Of a stretch of 64,000 nucleotides of DNA, positions 6,983-50,900 are shown in pieces. The DNA comes from Raillietiella orientalis (lineage: Eukaryota): the NCBI GenBank assembly GCA_036172245.1, contig JAYWIR010000126.1, positions 1 through 64,000 of the forward strand, in the 5' to 3' direction. Under the pieces are notes generated by a model, which was not told the origin of the DNA, searched no databases, and saw only the letters and a list, made by a program, of their open reading frames with translations. The position numbers were made by a program, and so were the translations under genes. Within the stretch, counting starts at the first letter, position 1. Every line of letters starts with the position of its first letter.

Positions 6983-7176
6983 TTTGCACCGGGGTGCGCC
7001 GGGGCATTTATTTCTTTAATAAAAAAAATAAACAAGCAAGTGTAGGGCTATCGCCCCTACAGTGTTCAGAACATGTTCTTCTGAACTCGCCGAGTGGGCA
7101 GTAGGCAGGCTCCCAAGGTCGACTCGGCAGCGGAGGGGGAACGGACAAATAGAAAAAAGAAAAAAGAAAACACTAT

Positions 7177-12468: not shown

Positions 12469-13128
12469 GTCGGCGGTGCTGGTGTTGCATTGGGGGCTTC
12501 CTTGCAACGCCTGCCGACACCACTGGACGCGGGGGGTGTCAACCCTTATTGTGTCAGGTGCGGGGAGAGGGAATACCTCCCCCACCTGTTAGTGGATTGT
12601 GTTGCCCTCCGTCCCTTGTAAGAACGGTTTGCCGCAGCCCTGGGGATCCCCGGAGGCAACCCCAGAGACGCTTTGGGCCCCCTCTTCGTCCGTGACGCCC
12701 TGCCTCCAGCGGCCTCGCTTTCAGCCCTGTGCTGCCTACGCGGGATCGTCGTGGCATGGAGCAAAGAGACGGGAGGATCCAGCGACAGGGATGCCAACGT
12801 GTATGCCGCCCGTTTCCTCAGGATGGCGACGCGATGGCCCCATCTGGAACCACACACGCAGAAACAGCTTGCCGGCATCCTCCAGAGGATGACGGACCCT
12901 CACAGCAGACTTTGATCCCTTCTCGCTCCCTACCTGATTTTTGTTTATTTTTTGTTTTCTTTTTGTTTCGTTCCCCCTTTCCTCTGCTGCCAAGGTGGAC
13001 CGCGCCGGTCTGCGCACCGGTAGCCCGGCAAGCTATATCTTTCCAGGGCGTCGCTGGACTACTGGTCCAGTCACAGATTGTATAGGTTTATTCGTGAGAA
13101 TAAACATCCCGGCGCACCCGGGTTTCAA
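12469..13128 (+). mobile_element. LINE copy B, 3' end
   Basis: HWG..C..CGE finger remnants, stop TGA 12913-12915, T-tract, structured UTR, AATAAA 13099-13104 followed by CCCGG-CGCAC-CCGGG. Confidence 0.9.
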
Positions 13129-13471: not shown

Positions 13472-13784
13472 TTATCACCCGGTCACGCCGGAACGTTTAT
13501 TAATAATAATAAACTAGTCAGGGACAATTTACCCAACCAACAGAACGACAGAGAACATAGAAAAATTACCTGCACGCAGGCCTGGTGAACAAACCGCTCG
13601 CAGCGTGGGGGGAATGAGAGGAAACAAACAAAAATCAAAAACTGGAGGGAAGGGTAACGGGTTTTCGGTTAGGCTCCGTACTCACGGGGATTTAAACGAT
13701 GAGCACCTAAAATGTTCCGGAGCTCATGGGGATGCAAGTGTAAAAAGAAAATACAAAATTAGTTAATGGAGGGTAGGGCAATGA

Positions 13785-19378: not shown

Positions 19379-21820
19379 ATTGAAATCTTCCGCTATCAGG
19401 TGAGCCTTTCCCACATTGGTATCCGCCAGCTAGTCGCGTTTCAGGGTTTCCAACAGCCTAGTGCAGTCGCAATACCCCTGTTTGCCGCTTAGGCCATACA
19501 CGTTTGTGACGATTAGTTCGATCGAGTCGGACCAGCTGAGAATCAGCTGACCGAACCGACCGTCGTCATCAAACCGCACGCCCTTTACAGCAGCGTCTAT
19601 GGCCGGCTTCACGAAGAACGCGACCCCACAGGTGTTGCGGAGGCCGCATCGCCAATACAACCGACCACCCGCGATCGTCTCGATCTCCTGGGCGTCTGCC
19701 GCGGTGATCACGTGGATCTCCTGCAGCAGCGCCAGGTGGAGCTCACGCAGGGTGTCGGCCGTATCTCGCCTGTTCCCGTCGTCCCTCAGCCCGTTGACGT
19801 TCCGACAGGCCGCGCGAATCCGACGGCGACTGGCGAGCCCAGGTGTTACTCCTGGGAAAACGGCGATGCGGCGTACGCCACCTGCTGATGCGGGACGCTA
19901 GGTGGAGGGGGAGGGGGGACAGGTACTGAAGGCACCTGTTCCTCCTCCTCCATCGGTGCCGGCGCGTCGGCCGGATCACCCGCAGGTGGAGTCGCGCCTA
20001 CCTGTTCGCCCTCGTATATGGGTTCGGGCTGCTCAGGTTTCGCGACTGCAGGGAGGACTTCACCCCCCTGCTCTCCCTCCTCCATGGGGGTGGCCGACTC
20101 GACGGCTTCCGGACGTGGGTATTCCCCCTTCGCGATTCCCACGCTGCCGCTTCCTTCCGGTTTCTCCTCCTCGCTGGTGGAGGGGAGGCTCCTCCTGGGT
20201 TTCTGGGACTTGCGTCCCGACTTCCTGGGGGTTGCCTCCGAGGAGGAGGATCCGCTTCCGGCCCCCCGGTCGCACTCACCTGCGGGGGCCATCTTGGTCG
20301 GAGCCAACCTGCGTACGCCCTTGCGCGACGGGGTTCGGCGCTCGGCGAGCGTTGCTGCGTGCTCCTCTGCCGCTTTCTCGAAGGCCACGTCTTCGCCAGC
20401 GGCGACGGTTGCCGCGCACTGCTCCGCGACCTTATCGAGCGCGGCTTCATCGCTGACGGCGAACGTTGCCGCGGGCTCCTCCGCGGCTTTGTCGATCGCG
20501 GCGTCCTGGTTGTCGGCGCGCAAGTCTCGCGTCTCACCCTCTAAACGTAGAATGGGCTCGTCCACGCGAGTATTCATCGCGTCCGCATCAGCTGTTCTGC
20601 GAACATTGCCGCTGGCGGACTCGGCAGGAACGGCTAAGCGTTCGAGTGCCACCGAGCATTAGCGGAGTTGCTTTTTTTTTTGAAACCGGCGCGGCTTTTT
20701 TCTTGTTGCCGGCAGTTTTCTTCTACGACTTTTCTTCTGGCATTAATTTCTTTTTTTTTTCTTTTCTGGCCTGAACCAGCTGCCAACCCTCCTCCATTTC
20801 CGCGTTCACGGGAGCTCTTTCCTCCGACGTCTGTACGGGAGGAAGGGAGGCTGGCAGTTGGGAACGGCCATTTTCGCGAGCTGGTCTTTCTACCAACTTT
20901 CCACGTTTTCCCTGCGCCTTTTTGGCGGCAGGGGGCACCGGGATGGGGCGCTTGGGGCACACGCGAGGAACGTGACCCTTTTCGCCGCATAGGTGGCACA
21001 GAATGTTTGGGCACCTCTTTCGTAAATGCTCTACTGCATTGCAGTAACCACAAAATTGGCGTTTCCCCACGTACCAGGGGTCCACCGCTTCTTGGCAGAC
21101 CTCCAGCTTGTGGGGAAGCGCACCACCCTCTTTTACGGTGATACGCGCCGCAGCTTGAACTCCGAAAAGGCTATTGTAGCCTAGGAAAATCGTGGAGTTC
21201 GGCCACAACGCGTGCACTTCTGCGTGCTTTTCTAACTGTTCGCGAACCGCTGACCTTGTCATGCGACTGGAGATCCCAGTGAGATGGACCACCACCGAGC
21301 GCTCCAACTTTAGAAGCAAGATCTTCCGACCATCAACGAACAGCGGGTCGGTGATCAGGTGTCAGGCCAAGGTGATATCCTTGCATACCACCTCGACCCG
21401 CTGCCCGCCGCTGAGTACGCAGAGGCCGTCGAGATCTTTTTCGAAAATATTGGCGTTCTGCAGCGCCTTCGTAAAGGCGCGTGCAGTTTGCCCATCGAAA
21501 AGGTTGCCTACCTTGTAAACTTGCGAGGGTTTATACCCCGCTTTCTTGTAGGCTTCCATCTCGGCCATGGCTTCCACGCTAGGCACGGCCGCCATGGCGC
21601 TCCATGACCTCGGTGTCGCCGGGGACGATTCCGGGGCGGATGCCCCTGATCCAGTAGGCTGTATGGACGAACAAGCCTCCATCACGCTTACTTTCATCGC
21701 GGTGTCCTCTGGCAACGCTGCCATCGGACACCGACGATGTGCACGCAGAAATCACTCAAGAAAGAAAAACCACTCGCTTTGCCACGCAAGCGGAGCGCGG
21801 GAAAAGCACGTCCGCTCTCC
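19379..21820 (-). mobile_element. LINE copy D, 5' part (5' UTR, disrupted ORF1 19846-21724, start of APE)
   Basis: 5' GGAGAGCGGACGTGCTTTT; ORF1 fragments homologous to A and J1; TAACA junction at 19844-19848. Confidence 0.93.
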
Positions 21821-24769
21821 ACAGCGGGCATTCAGCAAAGGGGCTCGCAACGAACGCGCGTATTTGCACGCGCGTCGTCACGAGAGGAACCCCAATGTCC
21901 GTCGCCTGGCCGAATACCGCGCCGGAGCCAAGCGACAAGCCTGGAAATCCGGGTCAGCCAGCATGCCGGATGACCTGGGCCGGGAACGTTCGTCTCCGTC
22001 TGCGGTACGGAATCTCGTGCGGTGTTTTTATTCTTCCCTTCACGCCAAAACACCACTCGAACAAAACGCTTCGCGGCGATTGCTCATGAGCGGTTCCTTG
22101 GCGATAGGGGAGGAGGAGAGAGAAAGCCTCGATGAGCCTTTCACGACCGGTGAAATTCGCGCCGTTATCAAAATGCTCAAGAGGCGTAAGGCGCCAGGGG
22201 AGGACGGCTTGTTCGCGGAGTTCTTTCAGAGTTTCGCGGAATAACTGTCCCCCCTGGTGCTCGAGTTGACAAGGCGAATTCGAGACGAAGGCGATGTTCC
22301 CGCCTCGTTTCGGTCAGCCAGGGTGAGGCTCCTCGCGAAGGGAGGAGACCTCAGGAAACTTTGTAGCTGGCGTCCCAACACGATTGTAAACACGGACGCC
22401 AAGTTCATTTCCGGGCTGTGGGCGTCGCGATTGGGGCAGGTGTCCAATTCCATAATTAGCCCGAAACAGACTTACGCTGTTCCCGGGTGAAGTATGGACG
22501 ACAACCTCTTCTTCGCGAGCACACGGATGCACGCGCAGCGGAGTAAGAAAGAAGGGAAAGGAAAAATTTGCAACCCTACTTTAGGGCCGCCAGTAGGACA
22601 GGGTAGGGACGCTCATGCGGGAAAGGGGGCCTTAGCGATCTCAGTCGACCTGCATAAGGCATTCGACTGTGTTGATCAGGAACTCCTCTTGGAGCTCCTG
22701 GGTCGCATGGGCTTTCCACCCTCCTTGATTACCTACCTTCGCTCTTGCTGCCGAAACGCGATAATCTCGATTGATTTCAGTGGACAAAAGGTGTATGGCG
22801 TGCCGGTGCGGCGGGGCATAAGGCAGGGCGACAGCCTCAGCCCCCTGCTTTTTAGCACCTACGCTGAGTTGGTGCTGAGAGCGTACATGGAGACTTTGGC
22901 CCCCTTGCCGAGCTCGTGCTTCGGCACGCCAGCTGTAGCGGCGTATGCCGACGATCTTCTGCTCCTCTTACCTATGTCCACCCCAGCTGAGGCAGTCGGA
23001 GATTTCTTCGACCTGCTTAGCCGTGGGGCCGGATTACATGTTAACAGGGCGAAGTCGTCAGTGTTGCCAGCTGGAGTGACGTGCGCAGGGCAGCAGGACT
23101 GGGTCCGTCTAGGGATCCCCACGGTGAGGTGCATCAAGTACCTCGGTGTGCCGTTGGGGGACTTCTCCCCTGCGGAAGCGTGTTCCAGCTGCCTCCAAAA
23201 AGTCGAGACGGCGATCGGCCCGTTCCTGGAAGGCAAGTTTCACTCGCCGGAACGGGCCGCGGTTTGGAACGCCTTCGCGGCCTTCATCCTCCGCCCCTTG
23301 CTTTTTGTTTGCCTCGACCCCGTGGAAGCAAAAAAGCGGACGAAGGACCTCCTTCGCATAGCTCTTTGGGGCAAGGGGAGGCCCCGATTCCTTTTGAAGG
23401 ACTTGTGCGCTCCGCGTCGGGACGGCGGTCTCAGCATCCTGACGCTGGAGCCCGTGGAAATCCATCTGCGATGGCAAACCCTCGCCATCGCAGCGAAGAT
23501 GTGGAGCACCGCTTGCTGCATTCAGGCCCGCCTCCTGGACAGGCGTGTGTCCCTCTGCGAAGGACTCGCATCGTTTCTTCTGTGCCCTGGCCGGAAGATT
23601 CGAAGATGCGGCCTACAGCTCGGATGCATGGCAACCCTGGCAAAGGAGAACGACTGGATGGTTTGTGGCCCTGCCAACTCCTCCGCTTGGCTGGAAGAGA
23701 CTGCTGGCACATGGGCCAAGCAGAACCAGATGTGCGAAGACCGGATGAACTGCCTGCGTGTCGGCTTTTACGCCCACCGCACTCTCCGTGAAATTCTTCA
23801 ATTTCCACCGAGTTGCACGTGGGCGGAAGGCACACCCCTTGTTACGGCGATGCCCTCCCTCCAAAGGGCGCTTCACGAAAGCGGGAAGTCAAGGAGGCAA
23901 GTCTGCTGCCGTATCGCAGGCACAGAGAAGATGATGAGCGGCTGGACCATGTGAGAGTTGACAGATGCAACGACCCCTGGTCTCCAGCCGCGCGGATTAA
24001 GAAGATGGGGCGAGTTGCTCGGCATTCGATTGGATGAACTGAAGTGGCGCCCGTTCCTACTTGGATCCAGGATTCTTCTTCTGAAGTGGCAAGAATCGGC
24101 GCTTCTGTGGCTCCTTTGGGGTCTACCCTGCAGCGCGAGCCGTTTCCACTGGACGCGGGGAAGAGTAAATCCTGCGTGTGCAAGGTGTGGGGAGCGGGAG
24201 TCGCTCCCTCACCTCGTAGTTGAATCCCTTGCCGTCTGGATTCTTTGGGATCGTCTGAAAACGGCCCTCCGGATACCGGATGGTGGCAATGTTGGATGTG
24301 TCTTCAGTCCTGTCTTCGTGCGGGACGCCCTCAGTCCAGCCGCAGCCCTGGCAGCACTTTGCTGCATTCGTGGTATCTTGGCGGCCTGGAGTGATGCCGA
24401 AGATCAAGACTGCATCGTGAGGGACGTCATCGAGTATGCTTCTCGCTTCCTACAGAGAGCTACCCGATGGCCCAATCTAGGAAAACTGAAAATGGAACAA
24501 GAAGGCATCCTGCAAAGGATGGGCGCTCCCAGCAGTCTTCTGTGATCCATTCCCGGCCCTCCAAACTCTTTTTTGTGGCTTGTTTTTCTCTTTTATTTTA
24601 TTTTCGTTTTCTCCCCCATCCCCCTCCAATACCGAGGAGAGCCACACCGGGCTGCGTCCCGGTGTCCCGGCAGTTCCGGTATTACTTGGCCGTCAGTGGG
24701 GCCTTGTATCACGTTCTGTATTGACCGTTGAAATGTTTTTAATAAACGTCCCGGCGTATCCGGGTGGCA
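21821..24769 (+). mobile_element. LINE copy F, 3' half (linker-RT-ZnF-3' UTR)
   Basis: RT ORF 22494-23954 (AYADD), C-terminal ORF 23958-24545, AATAAA 24741-24746 plus hairpin. Confidence 0.94.
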
Positions 24770-27370
24770 TCGCCCAAACCTGGAGGAAGTTGATGGAGGG
24801 GAAACTGGTCACAGAAGTCTAGGACTGAGCGTTTTATTTTGTCCCAGTCAGCGAGAGTCTGCAGTTCGCAACTACGCAGAAATGCGCGCAGATGTTCGCG
24901 CGCTCCAGCGAGTCGCAACCAGTCCCCCGGCAGGCGCCACGCTTCGGAGGGTGGACCTCTGTCGCGCGGGTGAATCTTGATCACTAGTCTAGGGTGATCG
25001 GACAGCTCCGACGCATTTGCTCCTTGAGTCCCCACCCGCGTACACAAGTGGTTATCGAGGAACACGTGGTCGATTCTGCTTCTCGCTCCGGCTTCATCGG
25101 CCAACAAGTTGCGTGTGTTCATAGCCGCACATAACTCGTTGCCCAATTGTGCTTGTATGTCGGGCGCTTCCGACAGCAGGCGGACGTTGAAGTCTCCCGC
25201 TATCAGATGCGCCCGCCGCACGCCTGCTCCGGCCAGCCAGTCTCGCCGCAGGGCTTCGAAGAACGCAGTGCGTTCTGCGCGACTGTGGCTGGTGCAGGGC
25301 ACGTACAGGTTCGTGACTACGAGGTCGATCGATTCGGAACACTTAAGGACAAGTTGTCCTACTCGACCTTCCTCGTCGAACTGTGCACTGCGCACCGCAT
25401 TGGCGACGGCCGTCTTCAGCAGAAAGGCCACTCCGCGGGAATGGTCTCCTCCACCACGCCAAAGTAGCCTCCCCCCTGTGAGCCTCTCGATTTCCTGGAC
25501 GTCCTCTGCTCTGAGGGCATGCACCTCTTCAAGAAGTGCCAGGTCGAAAGGTCGCAGGGTGTCGGCCACGCTACGCCTCTTGCTTTCGCTACGCAGCCCA
25601 TTGACATTCCAACAGGCTATACGCAGCTCCAGGTAAGAGGCGATTCCTCGCATCATACTAGTGATGGTGGTGGCGTGTGTATTGCCGCCTCCTGTTCGGG
25701 AGGCGGCTGGTCGTTGTCCATCTGCGGTGGCGGCGTTTCGGCAACGACCGGAACGTCTGCAGCCGGACTGAGGTCGATAGGAAGGACCGACCGGATGCTG
25801 TCGATGGAGGGATCCCGCGACCTCGCGGACATCGCCTTCTCGCTATCCGAGCGCATCTCCTCCTCCTCAGCCTGAGGAAGAGCGACGCCCATAGGGTTGC
25901 GCGACTTCCGGACCGCCTTCCACTTCGGAAGGGCGACGGTAAGAGCGTTTCTGGCTTCCGCCTCGGACCCCGAAGTTTCCGGGCCCTTAACTTCCGCCGG
26001 ACGTCTGACGGCCTTCTTTGCAGCCTTAGGCGGCCGTATTAAGGTGGTTGCGAGTTCCTCCGCCACTTTCGCGAAGTTTTTCTCGTCGCTGCTGCTCGCG
26101 TGTTTGTCGCAGGATTCCTGCGGCGGTTCTGCGGCGTTCGCGACGGTTGCGGGAGTCGCGTTCGCCGATCGACGCTCGATCGACGGAACGCGCTCGATTG
26201 TAACGCGGCATTCCTTTATGCACTCGCGCTGCGGAATTTTTGGTTTGCCGTCCGCGGGTTTTTTCGGAACGCTCGCGTTCTGATTTTTTGAGTTTTTTGT
26301 GGTAATTTTTTTTGTTTAGTTTTCAATTTGTTTGGGTTTTTCGCCGGAGACTATTTTCCAGCCTTCCTCGTCGGCATTTGGATCAGAAGTCTCCTTTTGA
26401 GGCTCCTGCTCCTTGTGCACGACTTCTTCTGAAGTCGGCTTTCCATCGCTCTTTGCTTTAAATTCTGCCTTCTTCCCCTCGTTTGTCGAAGGGGCAGAAG
26501 GCGTTGTCGCGGTGGTTTTCGGGCACACAGCACTAGGGTGGCCCTTCGCGCCGCAAGATGGGCATCTAGCATCCGGGCATCTCTTTTTAAGATGCCCGAA
26601 TGTGTTGCACAGCCCACAGTATTTTTCCTTCTCCACGTACCAAAGGTCGACGAGCTCGTCGTTGACTTCAAGCTTGTGGGGAAGTTCTTCATTTTCGCGG
26701 AGAGTTATGCGTGCAGCCACTCGCCTACTGAATGCGCCTCGATAAGTAAAGGCGTTGGGCTTTGACCACATCGCGTATATCTCCGCGAATTTGTTGATTT
26801 CAGTGCGGATGGCTTCATTGGTCATCCGCACCGTTGTACCCGTGAGGTGGATCACCATAGAGTGATCCACCGTGTGTGGGAGGAGATTCCGCCCTTCGAA
26901 CGGAACGGGCGTGCAGAGCAGTTTGTGTGTGAGCGCTGCATCTCTGCAGATCAGCTCCGTGAACTGGCCGTTGCTCCGAATCGAGAAGCAAAGTATCTCC
27001 TCGTCAGAGATTCCCATCCTACGGATGGCGTTTCCAAATTTCCGCGTTGTAAGCGGAGAATATAGGTTTCCTACCTTGTAAAGGATGGCAGGGTTGTAGC
27101 CCTCCTTTATGTAGGCCTGCACTTCGGCGGTCACGTCCGGCGGAGCAGCCGCGGTCACCTTGTTCCACGCCCTCGCCGGGGTGGCGGGGGCTGATTTTCT
27201 GGTGGGGCATGACCCCACCTCCATAGGTTGGGGGGACGTGGGCCTTACGTCTCCCGTCGCAGGAACTTTGGCATCTTCAGGTATTTCTGCCTTCCAACGT
27301 CCGCACTTCCAATTCACACAACACCTAGTTTTGGCTTCCCTCACGGGAGCTGACCAAAAACGCGTGCGGC
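24770..27370 (-). mobile_element. LINE copy G, 5' half (frameshifted ORF1 25653-27344; APE 24770-25656)
   Basis: Two intact knuckles CGLCNTFGHLKKRC and CPSCGAKGHPSAVC; complete APE; truncated at LPPGLGD by the 3' end of F. Confidence 0.93.
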
Positions 27371-30104
27371 ACCGTCGCAGGTTTGCCGCATTCTGAGGGA
27401 TTTCTATTCCTCCCTTTACGCGCTGAGACCATCAGAGCGCTCCTTTGCGCAGCGCCTGCTGCCAGAGGGTGCTTCCGCGTTGAGGGAGGAAGAAATACAC
27501 ATGTTCCTCCAAGAGTTCACGATGAAGGAGATAATTTCCGCCATCAATAAATTGAGAAGAAACGAAGCACCAGGGGAAGACGGCCAGCAAGCTGAATTAT
27601 ACCAACACTTCGCGGCAGAGCTGGCCCCCCTGGTGCTAAAACTATGTATGCTGATCCGTGAACGTGGGGATGTCCCCAACTCGTTCCGGTCAGCTAGAGT
27701 ACGTCTCCTTCCTAAGGGAGGAGACTTGCGACACGTTGGCAACTGGCGTCCCATCACTGTAGTGAATGCGGACGCAAAGTTGCTCGCTAAACTGAGAACT
27801 GAGCCCCCGGGACGGGTAGCGGAATCCGTGGTCAGTCCGGAAAAGACATACGCTGTTCCCTGACGAACCATGGAGGCGAACCTGTTCCACGCTTCCACCT
27901 GGCTAGAGCTCCAATACGAAAGGGGATTGATGCGCACCAAGAATTCCAGTGAGTCCGTCAGTCATGCGACGGCTGGTCGGATGGGGGAGGGAGCACTTGC
28001 GTTAGCTGTTGACTTGCGTGAAGCATTCGACAGCGTCGACCAGAATCTCCTTCTGGAGCTTTTGGAACGCTTGGGCTTCCCGGCCTCTTTATTAGCCTAT
28101 CTGCGCTCTAGCTGGCGCGATGCGCAAATCAATGTTACTTTCAACAGGCATACTGTTCACGGCGTGCCAGTGCGACGTGGGATCCGGCAAGGAAACAGCC
28201 TGAGCCTGTTGCTCTTCAGTACCTACTTTGAGTTGGTACTGAAAGCGTACAGGGAAACTCTGGCGCACCTGCCGCATGAATGCGCCGGAACGCCTGCGGT
28301 TTCAGCATATGCGGACGACCTCCTGCTACTGCTCCCTATGTCCACCCCGGCTTCGGCGGTCGAGAAGTTCTTCGACCTGCTGAATCGAGGAACCGGGCTT
28401 ACGGTGAACAGGGCGAAGTCCTCCGTGATGCCAATTGGTGCGGCGTGGGCAGGGCAGCCGGACTGGGTCCGTTTAGGGATCCCCACGGTGAGGTAATTCA
28501 AGTACCTTGTTGTGCCGTTGGGGGACTACTCCCCTGCGGAAGCGTGGTCTGGCTGCCTCCAAAAAGTGGAAACGGCGATCGGCCCGTTCTTGGAAGACAA
28601 GTTTCTCCTTCCGGAACGGGCCACGGTATGGAACGCGTTCGCGGCTCCTATCCTCCGCCCCCTGCTTTTTGTTTGCCCCGTCACCAGAGAGTTGAAAAAA
28701 CGGACAAGGGACCTCCTGAGAATTCCCCTTTGGGAAAGTGGGAGGCCCCGAGTCCCGTTGAAGGACTTGTGTGCTCCACGTCGGGATGGCGGTCTCGGCC
28801 TCTTGACGATGGAGCGAGTAGAGATTCAGCTGTGGTGGCGAACCCTCGCCATCGCAGTGAAGTTATAGAGCACTTCTTGGTGCGTTTCGGCCCGACTCGT
28901 TGCCAGCAGTGTATCCGGAACGGAGGGTCTCGCGTCCTATCTTCTGTGCCGTGGCAGGAAGTTCAAGAGATGCGGACTTCTCCTGGGACGCCTGGCAACT
29001 CTGGCTAAGGAAAACGGCTGGATGGTATGCAGCTACGCCAACTCCTCCGCATGGCTGGAGGAGACAGCTGGCACGTAAGCGAAGAATAATGAAAAAAATG
29101 AATAGATATGGAACTGCCTGCGACGCGGCGCCTGTTCCTGCTGCACTCTGCGGAAGATACTCCAGTGTCCCGCGAGGAGCACGTGGGCAGAGACAACCCC
29201 CCTAGCCACGGCGATGCCCTTCCTGAGGAGGGCGCTCTCCAGCAGCCGCAAGCCTAGGTGGCAAGTTTCCTGCCGCATCGCAGGCAAGGAGAAGCTGATC
29301 AGCGGCTGGTCCACGGGTAAACTGGCGCAAGCCAGTACCCCTAGTGTCCAGCCGAGAGGACTGCAGAGATGGGGCGAGCAACTCGGCATCCAGCCGGATG
29401 ACCTGAAGTGGCCCCCGGTATTAATTGGATCTAGGATCCTCCTTCTGAAGTGGCAGGAGTCGGCGCTTCTGTTGTTGCATTGGGGTCTGCAACGCACGCC
29501 TTTACCACTGGACCAGGGGTCAAGTAGATCCTACCTGCATCAGGTGTGCGGAACGGGAAACTCTCCTCCACCTCCTTGTTGATTGTGCTGCCATCCGACC
29601 CCTGTGGGAACGTCTTCGTGCCTCCCTACGGATCCAGGAAAGCAGCCAGCTTAGAGACGTTTTTCGGCTTCTGTTCGTGATGATGCCCTGCGTCCAGCCG
29701 CGGCCCTGGCTGCACTTTGCTGCGTACGCGGGATTGTGACGTTCTGGAGCAACGTCGGAAGACCGAATCACGACAGGGATGCCGTCGTACTTGCAGTCCG
29801 CTACCTACGGATTGTGACCAGATGGCCCCACCTGGAAATTATACGGACGGACCTCGAGGGCATCCTGCGAAGGATGGAACCTCCTCCCAGTGGTCAGTGT
29901 TCCCTCCCCAACCCTCCCAAATCTTTTTGTTTTTATGTTTTATTTTTCTTTTTGTTTTTTCCCCCCCCCTTCCGCTGCCGAGGAGAGTCGCGCCGGTCTG
30001 CGTAACGGCGACCCGGCAGGTCCAGTTGAGTTGGCCGTAGTGGGGCCTCGTACCACGAATCAAAGAGAATTTTTAATAAACGCCCCGGCGTGACCGGGTG
30101 GCAA
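27371..30104 (+). mobile_element. LINE copy H, 3' half, decayed ORF2
   Basis: RT fragments 27480-27863 and 27870-28496 (AYADD); AATAAA 30075-30080 followed by CCCGG-CGTGA-CCGGG. Confidence 0.93.
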
Positions 30105-31949
30105 CTATCAACTTGTAATCCGCATGCACTATTGTGATGGGACGCAAGTTGTTAATGCTCCTCAGATCTCCTCCCTTAGGGAGAAGCCGCACAATTTGCC
30201 GAAAGAAACGAGGCAGGAACGTTACCTTTTTCGCGTATCAGCAAGATGAGTTGATGTACCAGGGGGGTTAGCTCAGCCGCGAAAGTTTGACAAAACTCCG
30301 CGGACAGGCCGTTCTCCCCTGGAGCCTTTCGCCTCTTGAGCTTTCCGATGGCCGAGATGATCTCGCCCATCGTAAAAGACTCGTCGAGGGACTTTTTCTT
30401 CTCTTCCCCAATCGCAGGAGCGCCTTCCGGAAGCAGGATTTGTGAGAAATCCCGCTCGGGAGGCGTTCTTGCGTACAGGGAGGAGTAAAAACGCCGCAGC
30501 AGACCGCGGATCTGAGCGGGTGCAGAATGCTCCTGGCCCTGATCGCCCAGCAAGCTGGCCGATCCTGACTTCCACTCTCGCCTTTCGGCTCCCGCTTTGT
30601 ATTCCGCTAGCCTGCGGATGTCGGGGGTCCTGGCGTAACGACGGTCCTGCAGGTAGGCTCGTTCGTTACGGACCCCGGTCCCAAAACCCGTAGGTAGTCG
30701 GTGTAGAGGGAACTGGTCGCAGAACTCCTGGACCGACCGTTTAAAGCGGTCCCAATCCTGAAGTGTCTGCATCCTAAAGCTCCGTATCAACGTGCGGAGA
30801 TGTTCCGTCGCGTCCGGGAGCTCTAGCCAGTCCCCTAGCAAACGTCACGCTGACAAGGGGGTGCCCCTGTCGCACGGATGGATTTAAATCAAGATTGGTC
30901 GATGGTCGGACAACTCGCACGGCAACTTGCAGCGCCTGCCCACACGAGTGCACAGGTGCTCGTCAAGGAACACGTGATCGATGTTGTCGTCCATCCCTGG
31001 TACACTTGCCAACAAATTACAAGTGTGCACCGCCGCGCACACCTCGTTGACCAGGTCACGCTCGTGATTCAGCCCATCCGGTTTCAGACGAACGTTAAAA
31101 TCGCCTGCAACCAGATAGGCATTCCGCACGCCTGCCTCGTTCAACCAGTCGCGATGGAGGGCAAGGAAAAATACTTTCCTGGCCCTCCTGTTCGGCAGGT
31201 CCGCTCCGCTCGGGGCGTAAACGTTCGTAACGATCACGTCGATCGAGTCGGACCAGCTGAGAGACAGCTGACCGACACGACCGTGATCGTCGAACCGCAC
31301 TCCACGGGCGGCGGCCTCGATGGTGGGCCGAACCAGGTAGGCGACACCACAACTTCTCGATGTTCCACACCGATACCACAGCCGCCCTCCTTAGATGCGT
31401 TCGATCTGCTGCGCTTGTTCTGCAGAGATCACATGGATCTCCTGCAGCAGCACAAGGTCGAACGATCCTACAATGGCGGCCATGTCTCGTCGCCTGCCGG
31501 CGTCTGTCATGCCGTTCATGTTCCAAACGGCGATGCGCAGACGACGGCGGGAGGAGATTCCCGGCATTACTGCCGGGAAAATGACGGTGTGGGGGAACCC
31601 GCCCCTTCCGAGGCGGGTGAGATGACCATTAGGGTTTCAGCCTCCTCAGGCACCTTGAATACCTGTCCGGCTTCAACCCCCTCCATCTCCTCCGTGTCTG
31701 TGCGCGGTGGTCTCTTGGGTGACGATTCCCGGGATTCTCCCACGCTAATGGCACCCTCGCAGTTGGAAGTGAACTCCACGCCATCCACCTCGACAGGGGC
31801 TTTCCGAGGTTTGCTGGACTTTCTTCCAGCCTTCCGGCTTGGTGCCACGGAGATGGAAACTTGGTTTCCGGCCTGCGCTTCGGGGTCGGAAGTTACCGAC
31901 TCCTCGGTGGAGGCTGGACGCCTCACTGCCTTTTTGCCAGCCTTGGAGG
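30105..31949 (-). mobile_element. LINE copy I fragment (ORF1 C-terminus, APE, linker)
   Basis: TAATG at 31565-31569; APE 30884-31300; linker 30176-30841; inverted duplicate of 53416-55260. Confidence 0.92.
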
Positions 31950-34900
31950 CTTACACCCGGGTACGCCCGGGGCGTTTATTTTCAAAAAACCCTACATCCG
32001 CGGTACAAGGCCCCGCTCACGGCCGTATGCACTGGACCTGCCGGGACGCCGGGACGCAGCCCAGCGTAGCGTTCCTCAGCAGCGAAGGGGGATGGGGATA
32101 AAACAAAAAGAAAAATAAAAAAATAAACAGACAAAAAAAAGTTGGAGGGCAGGGAAGGGATCACTAAGCGCTGTGAGGAGTTCCCATTCGTTGAAGGAAA
32201 CCCTCGAGGTCCGTGCGTATATTCCCCAGTTGGGGCCATGCGGCAGCTCTCCGCATGAAGCGTTGGGCGTATGGGATCACATCCCTCGCATGTGGACCCA
32301 CTCCTTCGTTATTGGCGTTGCTCCATGCCGCCACGATGCCACGGACACAGCACAAGGCTGCGATCACTGCGGCTGGCTGCAGTGCGTCCTTCACGAAGAG
32401 GGGCCGAAGAACGTCTCTGGGAGTGCTGCCCGTAGGGAGCCCTAGGGTCGCCCCGAACCGTTCCCAGAAAGATCGGATGGCAGCACAGTCCACAATTAGG
32501 TGAAAGAGCGATTCCCGCTCTCCGCACCTAACACACACAGGATCCACAGTTCCCTTTGTCCAGTGGAAGCGGCGTGCGTTGCAGGGTAAACCCCAGTGCA
32601 GCCGTAGCAACGCCGACTCTTGCCACTTAAGGGGCAGGATCCTGGATTCCTTTAGTACCGGAAGCCACTTCAGCACATCCGTAGGGATGGCGAGCAGCTC
32701 GCCCCATCTCATTAATCCACGCGGCTGGACGCTCGGGGTCGTGGAGTCCGCCAGTTCTCCTGTGGTCCAGCCGCTTAACATCTTCTCCCTGCCTGCGATC
32801 TGGCAGGTGACTTGCCACCTCGGCTTCTGGCGATCCTGCAGCGCCCTCAGGAGGTAGGGCATCGCCGTAGCAAGGGGGTCGTCAACGCCCACCTGCGACT
32901 CCGAGAGAATTCCAGTATTTCCAGCAGGGTGCGGTTGGCGTATAGGACGATTCGCAGGCAGTTCATGTGGCTTTCACTCCTCCGGTTCAGTTAGCCCATG
33001 TGCCAGCAGTCTCCTCCAACCAGGCGGAGGAGTTAGCGGGGCCACAAACCATACAACCGTTCGTCTTCGCCAAGGTTGCTATGCGTCCGAGCATAAGGCC
33101 GCATCTTCGGATCTTCCGGCCAGGGCACAGAAGAAACGACGCGAGTCCTTCGCATCGGGACACACGCCTGGCGAGGTGGCGGGCCGGAACGCACCAAGGG
33201 GTGCTTCACATCTTCGCTTCGTATGGCGAGGGTTCGCCACCGCAGCTGGATTTCCACGCGCTCCAGCGTCAGGAGGCCAAGGTCGCCGTCCCGACGCGGA
33301 GCGCACAAGTCCTTCAGAGGGAATCGGGGCCTCCCCTTGCCCCAAAGTTCGATGCGGAGGAGGTCCTTCGTCCTCTTTTTGCATTCTTTGGGGGCGGGGC
33401 AAACAAAAAGCAAGGGGCGGAGGATGGGGGCCGCGAAGGCGTTCCAAACCAATGCTCGTTCCGGCAAGTGAAACTTGCCTTCCAGGAACGGACCGATCGC
33501 CGTCTCAACTTTTTGAAGACAGCTGGACCACGCTTCCGCAGGGGAGTATTCACCCAACGGCACACCAAGGTACTTGAGGCACCTCGCCGTGGGGATCCCC
33601 AGACAACCCAGTCCTGCTGCCTTGCCCACGCCGCACCTACTGGCACCACCGACGACTTCGCCCTGTTGACCTGCAGTCTGGTCCCACGGCTGAGCAGATC
33701 GAAGAAGTCTCCGACCGCCTTCGCCAAGGTGGACATAGGTAACAGGAGCAGAAGGTCGTCGGCATAGGCTGCTACGGCGGGCGTGCCGGGACACGAGCTC
33801 GGCAAGGAGCCCAAAGTCACCCTGTAGGCTCTCAGCACCAACTCAAAGTAGGTGCTGAAGAGCAGGGGACTCAGGCTATCTCCCTGCCTGATGCCCCGCC
33901 GCATCGGCACGTGATGCACCTTCTGTCTGCTGAAAGAGACGGAAATTATCGCATGGCGCCAGCAGGAGCGCAGGTAGTTGATCAAGGAGGGTCGGAAGCC
34001 CATGCGACCCAGGAGCTCCCACAAAAGCCCCTGGTTAACACAGTCGAACGCCTTATGGAGATCGACTGCGAGCGCTAAGGCCCTCTTCCCAGACCGGGTG
34101 TCCATTCCCAGCCCAGCTGGCGGCCCCAAAGTGGGGTTGCCAATGTTTCCGCCAGTTTCATTTAGACAGCGCTGCACATGGAACCATGTGCTCGCGAAGA
34201 ACAGGTTGGCATCCATACTTCGTCCGGGAACAGCGTATGTCTGCTCGGGGCTAATTATGGAGTCTTCCACCTGTCCTAGACGCGAAGCCAATAGCCCGGC
34301 TACCTACATGGCGTCCGTGTTCACAATCGTGATCGGACGCCAGTTGTTCAAATTCCTAAGGTCTCCCCCTTTCGGAAGGAACCTCACTCTGGATGACCCA
34401 AACGAGGCGGGAACATCGCCTTCGTCTCGGATCAGCCTTGTCAGCTGAAGCAGCAAGGGTGCCAGCTCTCCCGCGAAGCTCTGATCGAACTCCGCGGGCA
34501 AGCCGTCTTCCCCTGGTGCTTTCCGCCACTTGAGCCTTTTGATACCGGCGAGAATTTCGCCGGTGGTATAAGGCTCATCGAGGCTTAACGACTCCTCCTC
34601 CCCTATTGCCGGGGCACCATCCGGAAGCAAGAGCCGAGAGGCATCTTGACTCGGGGGCGCCCTGGCGTGAAGGGAGGAATAATAACTCCGCACGAGATGC
34701 CGTACTGACGCCGGGGACGAACATTCCCGGCCCTGGTCATCCAGCAAGCCGGCCGATCCGGATTTCCAGGCTTGTCGTTCGGCCCCGGCGCGGTACTCGG
34801 CCAGGCGACGGACATTAGGGGTTCGCTCGTAATTACGGGCCTGTAAATAGGTCCGATGGTTGCGAGGACCCTCGCCAAATCCGAAGGGCAGGCGGTCCAG

Positions 34901-35295: not shown

Positions 35296-38200
35296 TTATC
35301 ACCCGGTCACGCCGGGGCGTTTATTCATAATAATAAACTGGTCAGGTACAATGTCCCCAAACAACAAAACGACAGAGAACATAGAAAAATTACCGGCACG
35401 CAGGCCTGGTAAACAAACCGCTCGCAGCGTGGGGGGAATGAGAGGAAACAAACAAAAGTCAGAAACAGGAGGGAAGGGTAACGGGTTTTTGGTTAGGCTC
35501 CGTACTCACGAGGATTTAAACGATGAGCACCTAAAATGTTCCGGAGCCTATGAACACGCGGGTGTAAAAAGAAAATACAAAACTAGTTTATGGAGGGTAG
35601 GGCAATGATCACCATGTTGGCCGCTGCTGAGGGTGTGTAAACCGGCGGTGTATTGCGGCGAGATTCCTTTTTGTCTCCTCTGTCAAATGAAACCATCTAG
35701 CGAATGCTCCCATGGTGAAGGATGCTTTGCTGATTACCTCTTGGTGCTGTCCGTTGATTACCAACGCCTGGCGGACGGAAACTATCGCGCGTATGCAACC
35801 GATGGTTGCAATCCTTGCGCTTAGTGAAAGCCCGCTCGGCGTGAAGAATCGTCGCAGCAAGTCTCTCGCGGTGTCAACGGGATGCATTAGTGCTGTTGCC
35901 AGCCTACGCCAAAGTCCTTGTAGGACATGCAGTCCAGAAGTAGGTGCGGAATCGACTCCGTCGATCCGCAACGAACGCAGTCCGCAGACGCAAGTCCCCC
36001 GGAGTCACGATGCCAACGCTCGTTGCACTGAGAATCCCAGTGAACAAAAAGCAGCACGGCTTGTTTCCAAGCAAGGGGGAGCAGCGAACTGTCAATACAC
36101 TCTGGAGGGTCTACAAGTTCTTCGGGGGTGACAGCAAGTTCTTCTGCCCACCGGAGGAGTCCCTTTGCAGTAACACGAGGAGTGGCGGCGTCCGCCAACT
36201 CACTCGTCTTCCAGGCGTCAAGGATTTTAATTTTTCCCGCTATCGTGCAGGAAACCTCCCACCTCGCCGGTTGGTAACTGTCGTTTCTTGCCCTGAGGGC
36301 AGACAGCGCTGCGGCAAGAGGCGTGGCAGCCAGAGTAGAAAACTTCACCTCGTCCTGCAGTACTTCTTCCAAGGATCGTGGAAAAAAGTGACGCAGGGGG
36401 CGAAGATCTTCAGGGCGTATTCCTTGGAACGCCGCCCAGGATTCAACAGACTCCTGCCGCCAAGCTTCAAAGTTCATTAAGCGGCAGGAGATCCACGATT
36501 GAGCTTCCAGAAGTGCGGTCAACTGCCGCAATGGAAACCCGAAACCCCGCTTCCTGTATTGAGTGCCCGGCAAAAGCGAGAGAAATGCTCCTCTGCCAGC
36601 GCATCTCCGCAAAATAATGCGGGCTGGCACACACAGGGGTATGTCCATAGCTGGGCACACAGTTCCAGCAGTCGGAACTGCACCTGCAGTCCGATTCGCT
36701 CCATTGTCAGGATACCCAAACCAGCATGCCGACGCGGAGCTAACAAATCTTTAAGGCGGATTTTAAATCTCGCCGGACCCCAGAGAGCGTTCCTGAGCAG
36801 GCGCTTAGCCCGCTGTTTCGCCGCATAGGGAGGGGTCCAAAACAAAAAACTGGGGACGGAGGAGGGGGGCCACAAATGTGTTCCAAATAGTCGCTTGTTC
36901 CTGCAAGGTAAACTTGCGGTTAACGAAAGGGCTGATGGCCAACTCTGCTTTGTGAACACAGTCCGCTCACGCTTCGGCTGCGCCGAAAGCGCCCAAGGGA
37001 ACGCCGAGGTTCTTAAAGTACCCGCCCGTGGGGATCCCCAGGCGGATCCAGTCGGACTGCACCTCCAACGACGTAGCCACAGAAACGACCACGCTCTTTT
37101 CTCTGTTCACGCACACGTCCGCTCCCCGACGAATCAGGTCGAAGAAATCCTCGACGATGGACGACGGGGTGGACATGGGGAGCAGAAGAAGCAGGTCATC
37201 AGGGTAGGCGGCCACGGCAGGCGTTCCCGGGCAGGAGCTAGTCAAGTGAGACAGCGTCAGCCTGTATGCTCTTAGCACCAACTCAAAGAAGATGCTGAAG
37301 AGCAACGGGCTTAAGCTGTCGCCCTGTCGGATGCCCCTACGAACGGGAATACCATACACGCGGCTGCCGCTAAAAGTGATGCAGGTTAGCGCGTGGCCCC
37401 AGCACGCGCGCAAATACAGCAGGAGTTGCGCCGGGAACCCAAGGCGTTCCATAAGCTCCAAAAGCAGCTTCTGGTTTACGCAGGCAAACACCTTTTTTTT
37501 TTTTTTTTGTTTTTCCCCTTTCTCCTGCTGCCTTGGTGGACCGTACCGGTCTAAAAACCGGTAAATTGGCAGGCGCCGTGGTTCTAAGCTTCTGGCTGGA
37601 GCATTGCCACAGCCATTAATAGTTTGTTTACAAAGTTAATTTTTTTAATAAACGACTCGGAGAAATCCGTGTGAAAATCGAACGCCTTGTGGAGATCGAC
37701 CGCTACCGCCAAGGCACCTGGCGTTCCCTCCTGCCGTCGGCGCCTGTTCTTCTTGCCTGCGGCAGTGACTTTCGCAGCAGCCTAGCTTTGCTGCGCCACA
37801 ACTTCCTGCAGCTGCATCCATGTACGCGCGAAAAGTATGTTCGCCTCCATGGATCGTTTCGGAATCGCGTAGGTTTGTTCCGGGCTCACCACAGAATCCG
37901 CGATACTTCCTAACCACGCGACTCACAGCTTGGAAAACAACTTGACGTCCGAGTTCACCAAGGTGATCGGACGCCAGTCGTTAAGTTGACGCAAGTCTCC
38001 GCCTTTCGGCAGGAGACGCACCTTCGCTGAGCGGAAGGAATCAGGGACATTCCCGGATTCACTCATCAGCGTCGCGAGTCTCAGCATCAAGGGAATGAGC
38101 TCCACTGCATAGTACTGATGAAACTCTGCAGGGAGCTCATCCTCGCCTGGCGCCTTTCGTCTCTTCAGCCCAGCGATGGAGAACGAAAATTCATCCGCCG

Positions 38201-41647: not shown

Positions 41648-43797
41648 TTTTCACCCGTGTAAGCCGGTGCTTTTATGACTAAAATTCTGACGTTACAAAA
41701 TTTTGTAATAAGGTCGATGTTGTTAAAAGTTTTCTTTTTCGGACGTCAGACGTTCTTTGAAGTCCAGTAGCACTTGTCTTTTTTGACCCGGAGGCCGATA
41801 AAGTCCTTCACTGGCGCCGGGACGGGGAAAATAGACAGAAAACAAAACAAAAAAAGGAAAACGTCTGGAAGGCAATGTTCTTAAGGAGCGGGAGGGAGGG
41901 AGGGGATCACGGTGCGCCGTGAGGAGGCCTTTGCATCCGGTTTTAGATGCGAACGAATGCCGGTGAATGTTTTTGAAGTCGACGCCAACGGCACGCTTTC
42001 TCCAAGGAGATCGCTGCCCAGTGGATGGCATTCCTGCTGGTCCTTCCTCTCCTAGACGCAGTATACTTCTCTAGGATACCGCGTATGCAGCAGAGCACTG
42101 CTACACTCCCGGAGGCTGGCAAGCCGTCTCGCGTCAGTGAGCGTCTGAATAAATTTTTCGGGTCACCCTCCGGAATGTTGAGAAACTACGAGAGTCTGTC
42201 CCACATTTTGCGGAGGGCAACACACTACAGAATCAAGTCAGGGATGGTCTCCCTTTCCTCGCACTCTGCAAAACTAGCATCCACATTCCCCGTTGTCCAG
42301 CGATACAGGCGTGCTCTGCTTAAAAGTCCCCAGTGGAGCAGAAGCAACGCCGTCTCCTGCCACTGCAGGGTAAGGGTGCCGTTGTCCCATCACGCTGGGG
42401 GCCACTTCACCTCCTCCGGAGGTATACCGAGCAGCGCGCACCAGCGTAAAAGTCCGTTCAGAGGGACACTCGGGGTACTAGCGTCCGCTAGTTCCCTCGG
42501 CGTCCACGCCTTCATTGATTTCTTCCTGCCTCCGATGAGGCAGGACACTTCCCACGATGCCTGTTGGTGGCTGTCATGAACTTCCCTGAGGAAGGGCAGC
42601 TCTGGGGCAAGGGGGGTGAAGGAAGCCCACAGAAGTTTCCGTGGGTTAGAAACGATCTCCTTGAGTGGCTGACCAGCGTGCCTCCCTCTGCGGAGGCAGG
42701 AGAAGTCCTGATCGCTGGTGCCATTGATCTTCGCTTATGCGTATACGGACTCCTGGAGCCAGGTTGTCCAGTCCGCTGGGATGCAGGAGATCCAAGGGTT
42801 GTCTCTCATCAGAGCAACCAAATCTCGCAGCTGATAACCACAATGGTTCAGGATGCGTTCGTTGGCTAGCAGGATTGAAGTCAATCCGAAGCAGCCGGTT
42901 GCCCTATGAGCAAGGAGTCTTGCTGGTGCACACCAGGGTGCTGTCCAAAACTTTGCCACAAGGGCAAATTTTCTGAATTGGAGCTGTCTCTCCATGCGCT
43001 CCAACATCAGGAGACCAGGTCCACCGTCCCTGCGTGGAGCGCACAAGTCTTTGAGCCGGACGCGGGGCCTCCGGTTGCCCCAGAGGGCTTTCCGTATAAG
43101 GCCCCTAGTCCGTGTCCTGATTTGGTACGTAATAGGGCACACAAAATGTAGGGGGCCAAGGAGGAGGGCCGCGAAAGCGTTTAATACCGTGGCCCGTTCT
43201 TGCAAGTGGAACTTGCCGTCCCGGAACGGGCCGATCGACAGCTCCACCTTTTGTAGACGGTCGGACCAGGCTTCTGCAGAGCAGAAGTCCCTCAACGGAA
43301 CGCCAAGGTACTTGATGTATTTGCTTGTAAGGATCCCCAAGCGGATCCAGTCCGATCGTCCGGCCCTCGTCGAGTCGGTGAAAAGCAACGAAGATTTCGT
43401 CTTGTTTACCTGGAGGCCTGTCCCTCGGTATAGCAACTCGAAGAAATCCTCGAGCGCCGATGCCGGGGTGGACCCGGGAAGCAGGAGCAGAAGATCGTCG
43501 GCATAGGCTGACACGGCAGGCGTGCCAGGACACGAGCTCGGCAGGGTTGACAAAGTCTCCCTGTATGCTCTCAGCACCAACTCAAAGTAGTTGCTGAAGA
43601 GCAGGGGGCTGAGGCTGTCACCCTGCCGGATGCCACGACAAACCGGCACGCCGAACACGTGCCGGGCGCTGAAATTGATATTGATGAGCGCGTAGCGCCA
43701 GCAGGAGCGCAGGTAGGCCAGAAAGACGGCCGGAAATCCTAAGCGTTCCATGAGCTCCAGAAGCAGCTCCTGGTCGATGGAGTCGAAAGCTTTACGT
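41648..43797 (-). mobile_element. LINE copy K, 3' part (RT domain 3 to 3' end), divergent subfamily
   Basis: ORF 42735-43751 (GIRQGDSLSP, AYADD); stop near 41907; T-tract; CATAAA plus degenerate hairpin plus AAAAA. Confidence 0.9.
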
Positions 43798-43802
43798 CGG
43801 CT

Positions 43803-45231
43803 AGAGCAGACGTCTTTCCTCGGTGCTCCTCGTGCCGGGAACCGTCCCTAGGTGTAAGCTTCGTGTGTGGTGGTGATCGATCAGGCAGCAATGCCTGACG
43901 CGACCACCAGTACGTGTCAGGGGGCGGTGGAAACGTTGCCTTCTGAAGAAATGGAGTGCCAGGTGGAGGCGGCAACGTCGCCTCTAGAGAAGGTGGAGTG
44001 CCAGGGAGCGGCGGCAACGTCGCCTTCAGTGGCGAATTAGGTTGGGGCGTCCGCCCCCACAAAACCGGTCCCCGCTGCAGCGCGGGCGTGGAGCGCCGTT
44101 GTGTCGGCGCCATCGCCTGCAGCCGCGTCGGAATTATCTGCCTATGTGGAAGAGGCGTATAACCCAACACTATTCTACAAGGTAGGAAATTTGTATTCTA
44201 CTGAGAGTGCGCGCGCCTTTTCGAAGGGGATGCGCGCTCTCGATGTTAAAGAGGAGGAGCTCTGCGCTATGACCATTCGTAGCGGGGGGCAGTACGTAGA
44301 GGTGATCTGCAAACATGCAGATCTGGCCCAACGTCTGCTTAAAACCCCCGTGGTAATGGGGACACGCAGGCTCCTTCCCGTTACGGCGGACCACAGTATG
44401 GTGGTCCACCTTTTAGGAGTTACCGCGCGGATGCGGAAAGAACAGTTAAGCGCCGCGTTGGGAAAGGAAGGCAAGGTCAATGCAGTATGGAACAAGCCTA
44501 GTCCTTTCGAGGATTATACCACAGTTCAGAGAGGCCTCACGGCTGCCCGTTTAACCGTTCGAAAGGGCTCTACCCTTCCCCACAAACTGGTGGTCGGAGG
44601 AGAAAGCGTCGACCTCTGGTACGTGGGGAAGCCCAAATACTGTGGCTTCTGCAACACGTCGGGACACCTCAAGAGGAGCTGCCCCAACGTACAGTGCCTG
44701 GTATGCGGGACAATAAGCCACACGAACGAAGTGTGTCCACAATCCGCTGTGCGCGTAGTTTCCGCGAGGAACCTAAAAAAACGCGCGCAGCTGCTTCAGA
44801 AAAAACTAGCGGCGAAGGATGCCGCTCAAGCTGTGCCACCCACTCCCGTGGTCCAGACCTCAGCCGACACCCGGGCAACGAATGCCGAAAAGATTGACAA
44901 AAGCGGTCAGGTGTTGGAATGGCAAGAAGTCACAGCGAAAAAGAAAAAAAAGTCGAAGAAAGAACGACGAATCGAAAAAAAGCTCGACTACCAAAATAAA
45001 AAACAGCAGGTCAGCGAGAATTTAAAAGAATGCAGCGTCGTCGTGGAACGCGTCTCCGCCGAACGCCGCAAGGTAGATATCGCTGCTACCAACGAGCAAC
45101 CCACTGTTGAAAATGTCAACAGCGTGGGGAGCGAACCGGCGGAAGCGTCCGTCATCGAGACCGTGATCGATGACGCAACCTTCGAGCGTGCGGCGGAGGA
45201 GCTGGCTGCATCGTTGCATCCAGTCCCCTCC
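43803..45231 (+). mobile_element. LINE copy I', 5' end and ORF1 N-part
   Basis: 5' AGAGCAGACGTCTTTCC; ATG 43891, premature stop near 44038; knuckles CGFCNTSGHLKRSC and CLVCGTISHTNEVC; interrupted at ELAASLHPVPS. Confidence 0.92.
43915..44037 (+). repeat. Three 42-bp coding tandem repeats in the ORF1 N-terminus of I'
   Basis: CQGAVETLPSEEME / CQVEAATSPLEKVE / CQGAAATSPSVAN starting at 43915, 43957 and 43999. Confidence 0.85.
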
Positions 45232-45243
45232 GCGGCCAGTTGG

Positions 45244-45257
45244 AGGACGTGTTTTTC
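45244..45257 (+). promoter_or_regulatory. Conserved 5'-terminal RGACGTGTTTT motif, putative internal promoter (representative copy)
   Basis: Found within about 15 nt of every intact 5' end: near 4695, 12460, 19367, 21810, 27360, 41380, 43810, 45247, 50916, 58000 and 63553, although the UTRs of different subfamilies are otherwise dissimilar. Confidence 0.6.
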
Positions 45258-45328
45258 CTTCACTCCCCAAAGAGTAGTAGGAAAGCGCTTTCTTGTGTGT
45301 GGTGTTTTGTGTACATCGTCGGTGTCCA

Positions 45329-50676: not shown

Positions 50677-50754
50677 TCCCTTCCCTGCCCTCCAACTTCT
50701 TTTTGTCTGTTTATGTTTTTTATTTTTCTTTTTGTTTTATCCCTATCCCCCTTC

Positions 50755-50895: not shown

Positions 50896-50900
50896 CCTCC

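Follow-up and report, generated by a model that had tools for sequence, protein, structure and literature searches.

What does the DNA behind the decayed ORF2 of a LINE copy (H) in Raillietiella orientalis encode, and what would read it? The window, i.e., the whole stretch of DNA that was analysed (64,000 nt, positions 1 to 64,000 of contig JAYWIR010000126.1), is a nest of non-LTR retrotransposon pieces lying on both strands, in a genome of 210 Mb. It holds 13 element ends that represent 8 families, three pairs of ends being mirror copies; a 10.8-kb inverted duplication with 99% identity (21365-32139 and 53226-64000) mirrors F, H and one J copy. The symmetry of this duplication runs past the window (contig position 12910 matches 72455), as a palindrome or an assembly artefact. 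The ORF2 of J contains the Pfam domains Exo_endo_phos and RVT_1 (APE endonuclease and reverse transcriptase, RT), and its best PDB match was human L1 ORF2p (1e-50), with R2 at 1e-16. ORF1 carries two CCHC knuckles, and its look-alikes in the Atlas were of the CCHC/ZCCHC3 type. With an APE and RT ORF2 nearest to L1, a CCHC ORF1 and target-site duplications, these elements are L1/Tx1-type non-LTR retrotransposons, and the module described here is the 3' UTR of such a LINE lineage in an animal genome. A protein homolog search gave 14 matches, one of them a fragment at 70% identity and the others distant. Elements of the Tx1 clade are described as often target-specific (PMC4494074).

The 3' ends share an ordered cassette made of the stop codon, a U-tract, a bulged CUGCGN stem, a variable middle hairpin, an AU-rich linker, AAUAAA, a CCCGG hairpin and 5-6 final nucleotides. 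This order is kept across families with ORF2 identities of 23-62% (5th-95th percentile; median 38%). The parts of the H copy and the other copies in the window are collected in Table 1. The inner stems quoted in the first-pass annotation were all present (B GCCGGT/ACCGGT, F ACACCGGG/CCCGGTGT, J ACGCTGGG/CCCGGCGT, S TACCGGT/ACCGGTA), and so were the middle hairpins of H, J, B, C and S, the T-rich tract and the terminal hairpin. The stem GCCG/CGGC given for H is in the sequence as well, but it is a minor variant at 30005: the full stem was found in 20 of 28 H copies and the variant in 3 of 28. Similarly, TGATCC is the stop context of 27 of 29 copies of the H family, but this H copy reads TGTTCC. 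At the target site of H, a 14-nt target duplication is seen in L022, a sister copy; for H itself, no 5' copy of the duplication was found within the window.

Table 1. Parts of the H element end and further copies of the module in the window
Feature	Position	Strand	Remarks
Decayed, 5'-truncated ORF2 of H (RT to C-terminus)	27366-29897	+	tblastn, aa 339-1191 of J ORF2
ORF2 stop context of H	29898-29903	+	TGTTCC
U-rich tract, then C-run	29924-29969	+	-70 to -40 from hexaloop, fixed distance
Outer stem P1	29975-30019	+	29975-29980 with 30014-30019; conserved, without covariation
Purine-rich 5' bulge of P1	29981-29989	+	9 nt
Inner stem P2	29990-30012	+	hexaloop CUGCGU 29998-30003; closing pair covaries
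Middle element	30033-30056	+	stem GUGG 30040-30043 / CCAC 30053-30056
Possible middle pseudoknot pairing	30033-30036 with 30044-30047	+	GGCC / GGCC
AAUAAA	30075-30080	+	UGUA enriched upstream across families
Terminal hairpin	30081-30098	+	CCCGG 30084-30088 / CGUGA loop / CCGGG 30094-30098
Candidate H-type pseudoknot pairing	30081-30082 with loop 30089-30090	+	
Element 3' end	30099-30104	+	U-GGCAA, without poly(A)
Target DNA	30105-30118	+	antisense ORF2 (aa ~480) of sibling LINE
Module, family B	12976-13128	+	
Module, family F	24618-24770	+	mirror copy 60595-60747, minus strand
Module, short insert S	37517-37677	+	loop decayed to CTAAAA
Module, family J	50745-50895	+	also 53272-53415 (plus), 31950-32093 (minus)
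Module, mirror copy of H	55261-55401	-	
Module, family E	35296-35437	-	also 13472-13613 (minus)
Divergent module, family K	41648-41827	-	
Divergent module, family C	6983-7141	-	
5'-start motif GGACGTGTTTTTC	~45237, ~50906	+	also ~41390 and ~12460 (minus)

All 13 element ends of the window were matched by a covariance model (R1) at E<0.03, its training set including some of the window's families, and the next matches (E 0.08 and 0.16) fell in ORF2. The terminal cassette, searched as the pattern AUAAA plus terminal hairpin, gave 3005 matches genome-wide as compared to 2 for the reversed control. Loci were taken from most of the first 100 listed matches, about 70 of a second list and, for each of H, J and B, its 30 best relatives, which yielded 277 distinct ends in 144 UTR types (below ~82% identity). 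Since this sample was chosen by the terminal motif, it cannot measure the conservation of that motif; moreover, many UTR types are single old copies with post-insertion decay. The hexaloop anchor was placed by sequence alone in 101 types (43 truncated or decayed types were dropped), and it is biased to the consensus stem sequence and blind to pairing. Covariation was tested with an R-scape-like procedure (not R-scape itself), a G-test with APC whose null was simulated on a tree; an independent ORF2 tree comprised 56 families (median identity 38%). No UTR match was returned by Rfam in E-value mode for the window and 10 loci, in agreement with the first-pass annotation, which had not recognised a known RNA family. 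In the literature available outside most subscription journals, Repbase and supplements, no description of this tail was found. A metagenome pattern scan gave 8 matches, none with LINE similarity or the module, which were judged to be due to chance; the terminal pattern was matched in soil-type, bacterial-looking contigs, seven of which share one sequence context.

In the first module, the bases of the hexaloop are C in 98, U in 97, G in 89, C in 86 and G in 95 of 101 types, with a free sixth base (U 56, C 17, G 14, A 14). C1 and G5 occur together in 92 of the 101 hexaloops, and no covariation is possible there. When all CT.CG sites were considered unfiltered, a loop length of 6 paired best among lengths 4 to 8, and three stacked pairs were found at 37 of 79 CT.CG sites as compared to 52 of 804 across the whole window. 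Pairing reached 85% in P2 and 58% in P1 when 65 types were aligned with MAFFT (one false anchor having been taken out of the 66 anchored types). The pair that closes the hexaloop was the sole one to pass the tree-aware null (0 of 300 and 0 of 200 simulations), and it held on the independent ORF2 tree with a FWER of 0.007; its states are U-A in 36, C-G in 36, U-G in 8 and G-C in 7 of 101 types. The remaining P2 pairs are 84-95% paired, a conservation too high for testing. The outer stem CTGCC/GGCAG showed no covariation over all families, where it is paired to the said 58%; within the H/J/F group it is 90% paired, and its arms are interchangeable within classes.

G-U exceeds A-C in the module 1 stem (47 vs. 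26), which favours the sense RNA strand. As for stability, the H module was no more stable than its shuffles (z -0.10) and the mean z of module 1 was -0.41; the antisense of module 1 folded as well as or better than the sense. When whole UTRs were folded, the probability of the P2 closing pair was above 0.5 in only 2 of the 14 top families and 0.01 in H, because the P2 arms can cross-pair with the terminal hairpin. This cross-pairing, which is the minimum-energy fold of H, was rejected: it is unsupported by covariation, the closing base and the last loop base being 25% paired. A CCA/UGG hairpin after P1 found no support either. One clade (L223, L249, L266, L275) keeps C1, U2 and G5 with loop positions 3-4 free, and its outer stem register is shifted by one base.

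The sequence of the middle element varies by group. A stem of at least 8 bp was found there in 46 of 144 types, as compared to 16% of shuffles and 24 of 144 flanks, and the mean z was -1.39 vs. -0.53 for flanks. When the types were anchored on GYGG...CCRC (40 of 144), the inner positions paired above permutation; none of the middle-hairpin pairs survived the tree test in the sets of 18-29 sequences so anchored. Among the 19 rows of the H/J/F group GUGG/CCAC changes to GCGG/CCGC, with U-A in 13, C-G in 5 and another combination in 1. An RNAalifold multibranch fold of this group was discarded, considering that its variable column is paired in 15 of 19 rows vs. 18 of 19 for GUGG/CCAC. Also in this group, the upstream GGCC can pair with the loop of the middle hairpin (97% paired, no compensatory change), and this pairing could make the middle element a pseudoknot.

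The terminal stem CCCGG/CCGGG is invariant, and its variants look like CpG decay. Compensation was sought by eye in the first 100 listed 5'-arm variants and rejected (U-A in 9 of 82 vs. A-A in 4 of 18); among the first 100 listed, again by eye, about 194 copies had U-G and about 141 C-A. Among the same first 100 listed variants, the 5'-arm CpG of the terminal cassettes had changed from C to T in 82 and from C to A in 18, an excess that suggests CpG methylation of these elements. A covariation signal that had not been planned for was found between the first base after AAUAAA (+1) and the second base of the terminal loop. In the 117 of 144 types with standard spacing, these bases are paired in 105 (C-G 43, U-A 32, U-G 17, A-U 13), with 88 Watson-Crick pairs as compared to a permutation mean of 44 (maximum 63), and the next base (+2) pairs with loop base 1 in 96 of 117. 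The +1 pair ranked first of 231; it was not significant with the tree (E 0.16; FWER 0.14 on the ORF2 tree with 44 families), its signal resting on two or three independent changes. At the level of copies (first 100 listed, by eye), loop U is combined with A in 53 copies and with C in 37, and among these 37 is an amplified type with the loop CUUGA, in which the pair is broken; loop A stands with U in 76, and loop C is seldom found (20 copies, of which 1 has G). The two loop pairs would be able to coexist with the terminal stem only as a small H-type pseudoknot, and the pairing pattern thus suggests a candidate compact terminal pseudoknot. On the whole, the covariation that the first-pass annotation had attributed to three hairpins stands for the hexaloop-closing pair and, in subgroups, for the middle hairpin; it fails for the outer stem and for the invariant terminal stem.

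The module ends at a fixed point. AATAAA was present in 125 of 144 families, followed by GGGT at a spacing of 19 nt in 117 of 144. An A-run of at most 6 was found after 271 of 272 ends, so that inserted copies lack the 3' poly(A) by which relaxed, poly(A)-recognising L1 elements are known. Perfect duplications of 12-17 nt flank 35 of 269 ends (1 in the control), a search in which most 5' junctions lay beyond the fetched DNA or were decayed. It replaced a looser one, discarded for its 131 matches vs. 89 in the control, and accepted only perfect duplications of at least 12 nt. In 31 of the 35 cases the duplication starts 4-5 nt after GGGT, which places the element end 23-24 nt after AAUAAA. The idea that the tail is copied from the target flank was dropped, only 33 of 120 comparisons being identities. 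TGTA was found in 77 of 144 families (shuffle mean 41, maximum 55), and at least 18 T in 30 nt form the U-tract in 52 of 56 families. An AAUAAA with an upstream UGUA and an end at such a spacing is the normal context of a poly(A) signal; the RNA is therefore probably polyadenylated, and the enzyme would start at the base of the tail.

The module is a real RNA element. The first-pass annotation had proposed an ORF2p recognition, stability or processing element, and an RNA cis-element of the LINE 3' UTR is indeed supported; ORF2p recognition appears to be its likeliest role, considering that the elements lack poly(A) and always end at the same place. We give a probability of roughly 0.6 to the reading that the module serves as a tail by which a stringent L1/Tx1-type LINE lineage recognises its template, and which would fix the start of reverse transcription. 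The host machinery would cleave and polyadenylate the transcript about 22-24 nt after AAUAAA, and the folded tail would be bound by ORF2p, the invariant hexaloop and the bulge being the putative contact common to all families, and family-specific contacts possibly lying in the middle hairpin and the terminal loop. The terminal hairpin, perhaps as a small pseudoknot, would position the RNA for target-primed reverse transcription (TPRT), which would begin no further than one or two A's behind the cassette and not along the poly(A) tail. Of the compensatory changes in a 3' UTR stem-loop that characterise stringent LINE tails, there is one tree-significant pair here. That only this pair is significant speaks against an ORF2p handle, as do a module 1 stability equal to that of shuffles, the low probability of P2 in folds of whole UTRs, the absence of a SINE with this tail among the copies looked at and the roughly 20 A's that human L1 ORF2p needs (PMC10830416); the hexaloop, being common to all families, cannot discriminate among them, and a host protein could equally be its reader. 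A more specific version, in which a two-part RNA code replaces poly(A) recognition (an epsilon-like pseudo-triloop bulged stem that recruits ORF2p and a terminal pseudoknot that acts as a ruler fixing the RT start base), is put forward tentatively, as a possibility that we hold to be doubtful.

A mainly host-facing function is unlikely in our judgement. According to this explanation the module serves 3'-end formation or stability, with the U-tract, UGUA and AAUAAA as the signals for cleavage and the hairpins as binding sites of host proteins; the U-tract may also capture the poly(A), passively leaving the first A's as the start site, much as an ENE that captures poly(A) stabilises the RNA of the retrotransposon Evade (PMC12501189). 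The TGTA excess, AATAAA at a canonical distance from the end, the fixed place of the U-tract and a loop that is invariant across families all fit. However, the U-tract is not part of any conserved helix and sits some 15 nt ahead of P1, inspection by eye showed no ENE-type U-rich internal loop and Rfam gave no match; nor does processing alone account for the lack of poly(A) in essentially all copies. The two roles can coexist, and ORF2p recognition is the one we favour. It is improbable that the stems are palindromes inherited at the DNA level, or sites at which proteins bind DNA, and that their apparent covariation reflects shared ancestry and CpG decay. Both CCGG stems are palindromic, the terminal one without compensation, the antisense folds at least equally well and most pairs fail the tree test; against this, the closing pair passes on the independent tree with both G-C and U-A states, G-U exceeds A-C, a loop length of 6 pairs best and the middle hairpin persists with unrelated sequences, more often than in shuffles.

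The fixed end 5-6 nt past a hairpin in copies without poly(A) could also be made by a self-cleaving ribozyme or a histone-like stem-loop that generates a non-polyadenylated end, which is more improbable still. Self-cleavage, which the first-pass annotation had brought up, found no support: an HDV-like descriptor and a hammerhead core matched 1 of 144 types each, P2 runs without interruption up to a loop of 6 nt, and no ribozyme or histone family was matched in Rfam. The histone 3' stem-loop has a 6-bp stem and a 4-nt U-rich loop, but the terminal hairpin has a 5-bp stem and a variable 5-nt loop; conserved AAUAAA and UGUA argue for ordinary cleavage instead. Least probable of all is that the pyrimidine tract and the conserved CAG or CAAG at the foot of P1 (68 of 101 families) form a splice or trans-splice acceptor, in spite of the higher conservation of the 3' strand of P1 relative to the strand it pairs with. 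About 45 nt separate the end of the tract from the AG, splicing would sever the tail from the coding RNA, and no copy was seen by eye to start at the AG with a shared leader.

Structured LINE 3' tails, to which the recognition reading assigns the module, are a known kind of element, unusual for the L1-type group. In the L2 clade, zebrafish ZfL2-1 and ZfL2-2 and eel UnaL2 likewise have a bulged 3' UTR stem-loop that is conserved across related LINEs and proposed as an ORF2p handle (PMC4176376, PMC5135761); binding of ZfL2 ORF2p to its own stem-loop is reported (PMC4176376), and bulged stems are described as typical of stringent tails (PMC5135761). The present tail differs in belonging to an L1/Tx1-type lineage, in having three or four domains over about 130 nt, in sharing its loop among all families, unlike the family-specific loops of ZfL2, and in the absence of a terminal tandem repeat. 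Closer in clade are maize LINE1-1_ZM (monocot 1a) and Chlamydomonas L1-1_CR, L1-clade elements for which a conserved 3' hairpin with compensatory changes is described (Ohshima 2012, PMC3472496; PMC3747384). According to the same sources each of these tails consists of one hairpin of about 50 nt and has partner SINEs, and L1-1_CR ends in poly(A), whereas ours is found in an animal, has several domains and lacks poly(A). No SINE with this tail was seen among the copies that were looked at. Nine plant and five algal L1 families are listed without a 3' repeat (PMC3472496), so that a missing tail is not unheard of.

Vertebrate R2 is described as binding a 3' pseudoknot-hinge-stem (PMC12180492), and A-clade R2 likewise has a multi-part structured 3' end that positions the TPRT template. 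R2 is a single-ORF element with a restriction-like endonuclease, whose pseudoknot has been proven and precedes the last stem (PMC12180492); the pseudoknot of the present tail is a candidate, and the RT of these elements is much nearer to L1. Human L1 ORF2p, the nearest solved protein, is reported to need about 20 A's and to bind a stem-loop that may help define its start (PMC10830416); human L1 copies its poly(A), and the present elements do not. SART1 is stated to require both its 3' UTR and poly(A) (PMC7265360). The hexaloop resembles the pseudo-triloops of HBV epsilon, foamy virus and the IRE, which likewise have C1 and G5 fixed and the sixth base free (PMC1636360, PMC3884659): epsilon CUGUGC is reported to fold in this way (PMC1636360), the foamy-virus hairpin has the same C-UGC-G (PMC3884659), and epsilon, too, is a stem with a bulge to which a reverse transcriptase binds (PMC1636360, PMC3884659). 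The likeness is without homology or an Rfam match. In an NMR study a G-C closing pair was needed and C-G prevented the pseudo-triloop fold, with functional exceptions noted (PMC3884659); G-C closes only 7 of 101 hexaloops here.

What is new here concerns the tree-aware limits on covariation, the geometry of the end and the candidate terminal pseudoknot. Whether the L1 clade was ancestrally stringent or relaxed is presented as an open question (Ohshima 2012, PMC3472496), and the structure of an L1-type protein is known only in its poly(A)-dependent human form. More than 100 UTR types with one structured tail-less end, an ORF2 about 38% identical and family-specific sites provide a natural test set for the choice of RNA and start point. 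Were the two-part code true, it would represent convergence on the pseudoknot recognition of vertebrate R2. Parts of this kind, a portable 3' module of about 130 nt that gives a precise junction, are also used in R2-based gene insertion.

Several observations concern the insertions themselves. H copies lie antisense at about aa 480 of the ORF2 of sibling LINEs, a site common to 22 of 25 scored copies. Among H copies the target side falls to 68% identity and the element side stays at 93% or above; that the target diverged more than the element points to repeated independent insertion. Recurrent sites of their own were also seen for B (aa 262, antisense), E (aa 146, sense) and J (ORF1 aa ~420, sense), and one copy of C lies at aa 1045, antisense. 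Short copies have scattered 5' ends, like truncated LINEs, and no tRNA was found in the window. Full-length elements start a few bases past the target duplication with a common motif, GGACGTGTTTTTC or a close variant, which we take to resemble the downstream promoter element of insect LINEs. At another fetched locus, a host cytoplasmic actin gene (1198-2274) has introns full of homopolymer runs; its best PDB match, Actin-5C, marks the host as an animal. Finally, two J copies lie head to tail at 45227-53425 of the window with the same 10-nt target duplication between them, an arrangement that is due to re-insertion into the duplicated site.
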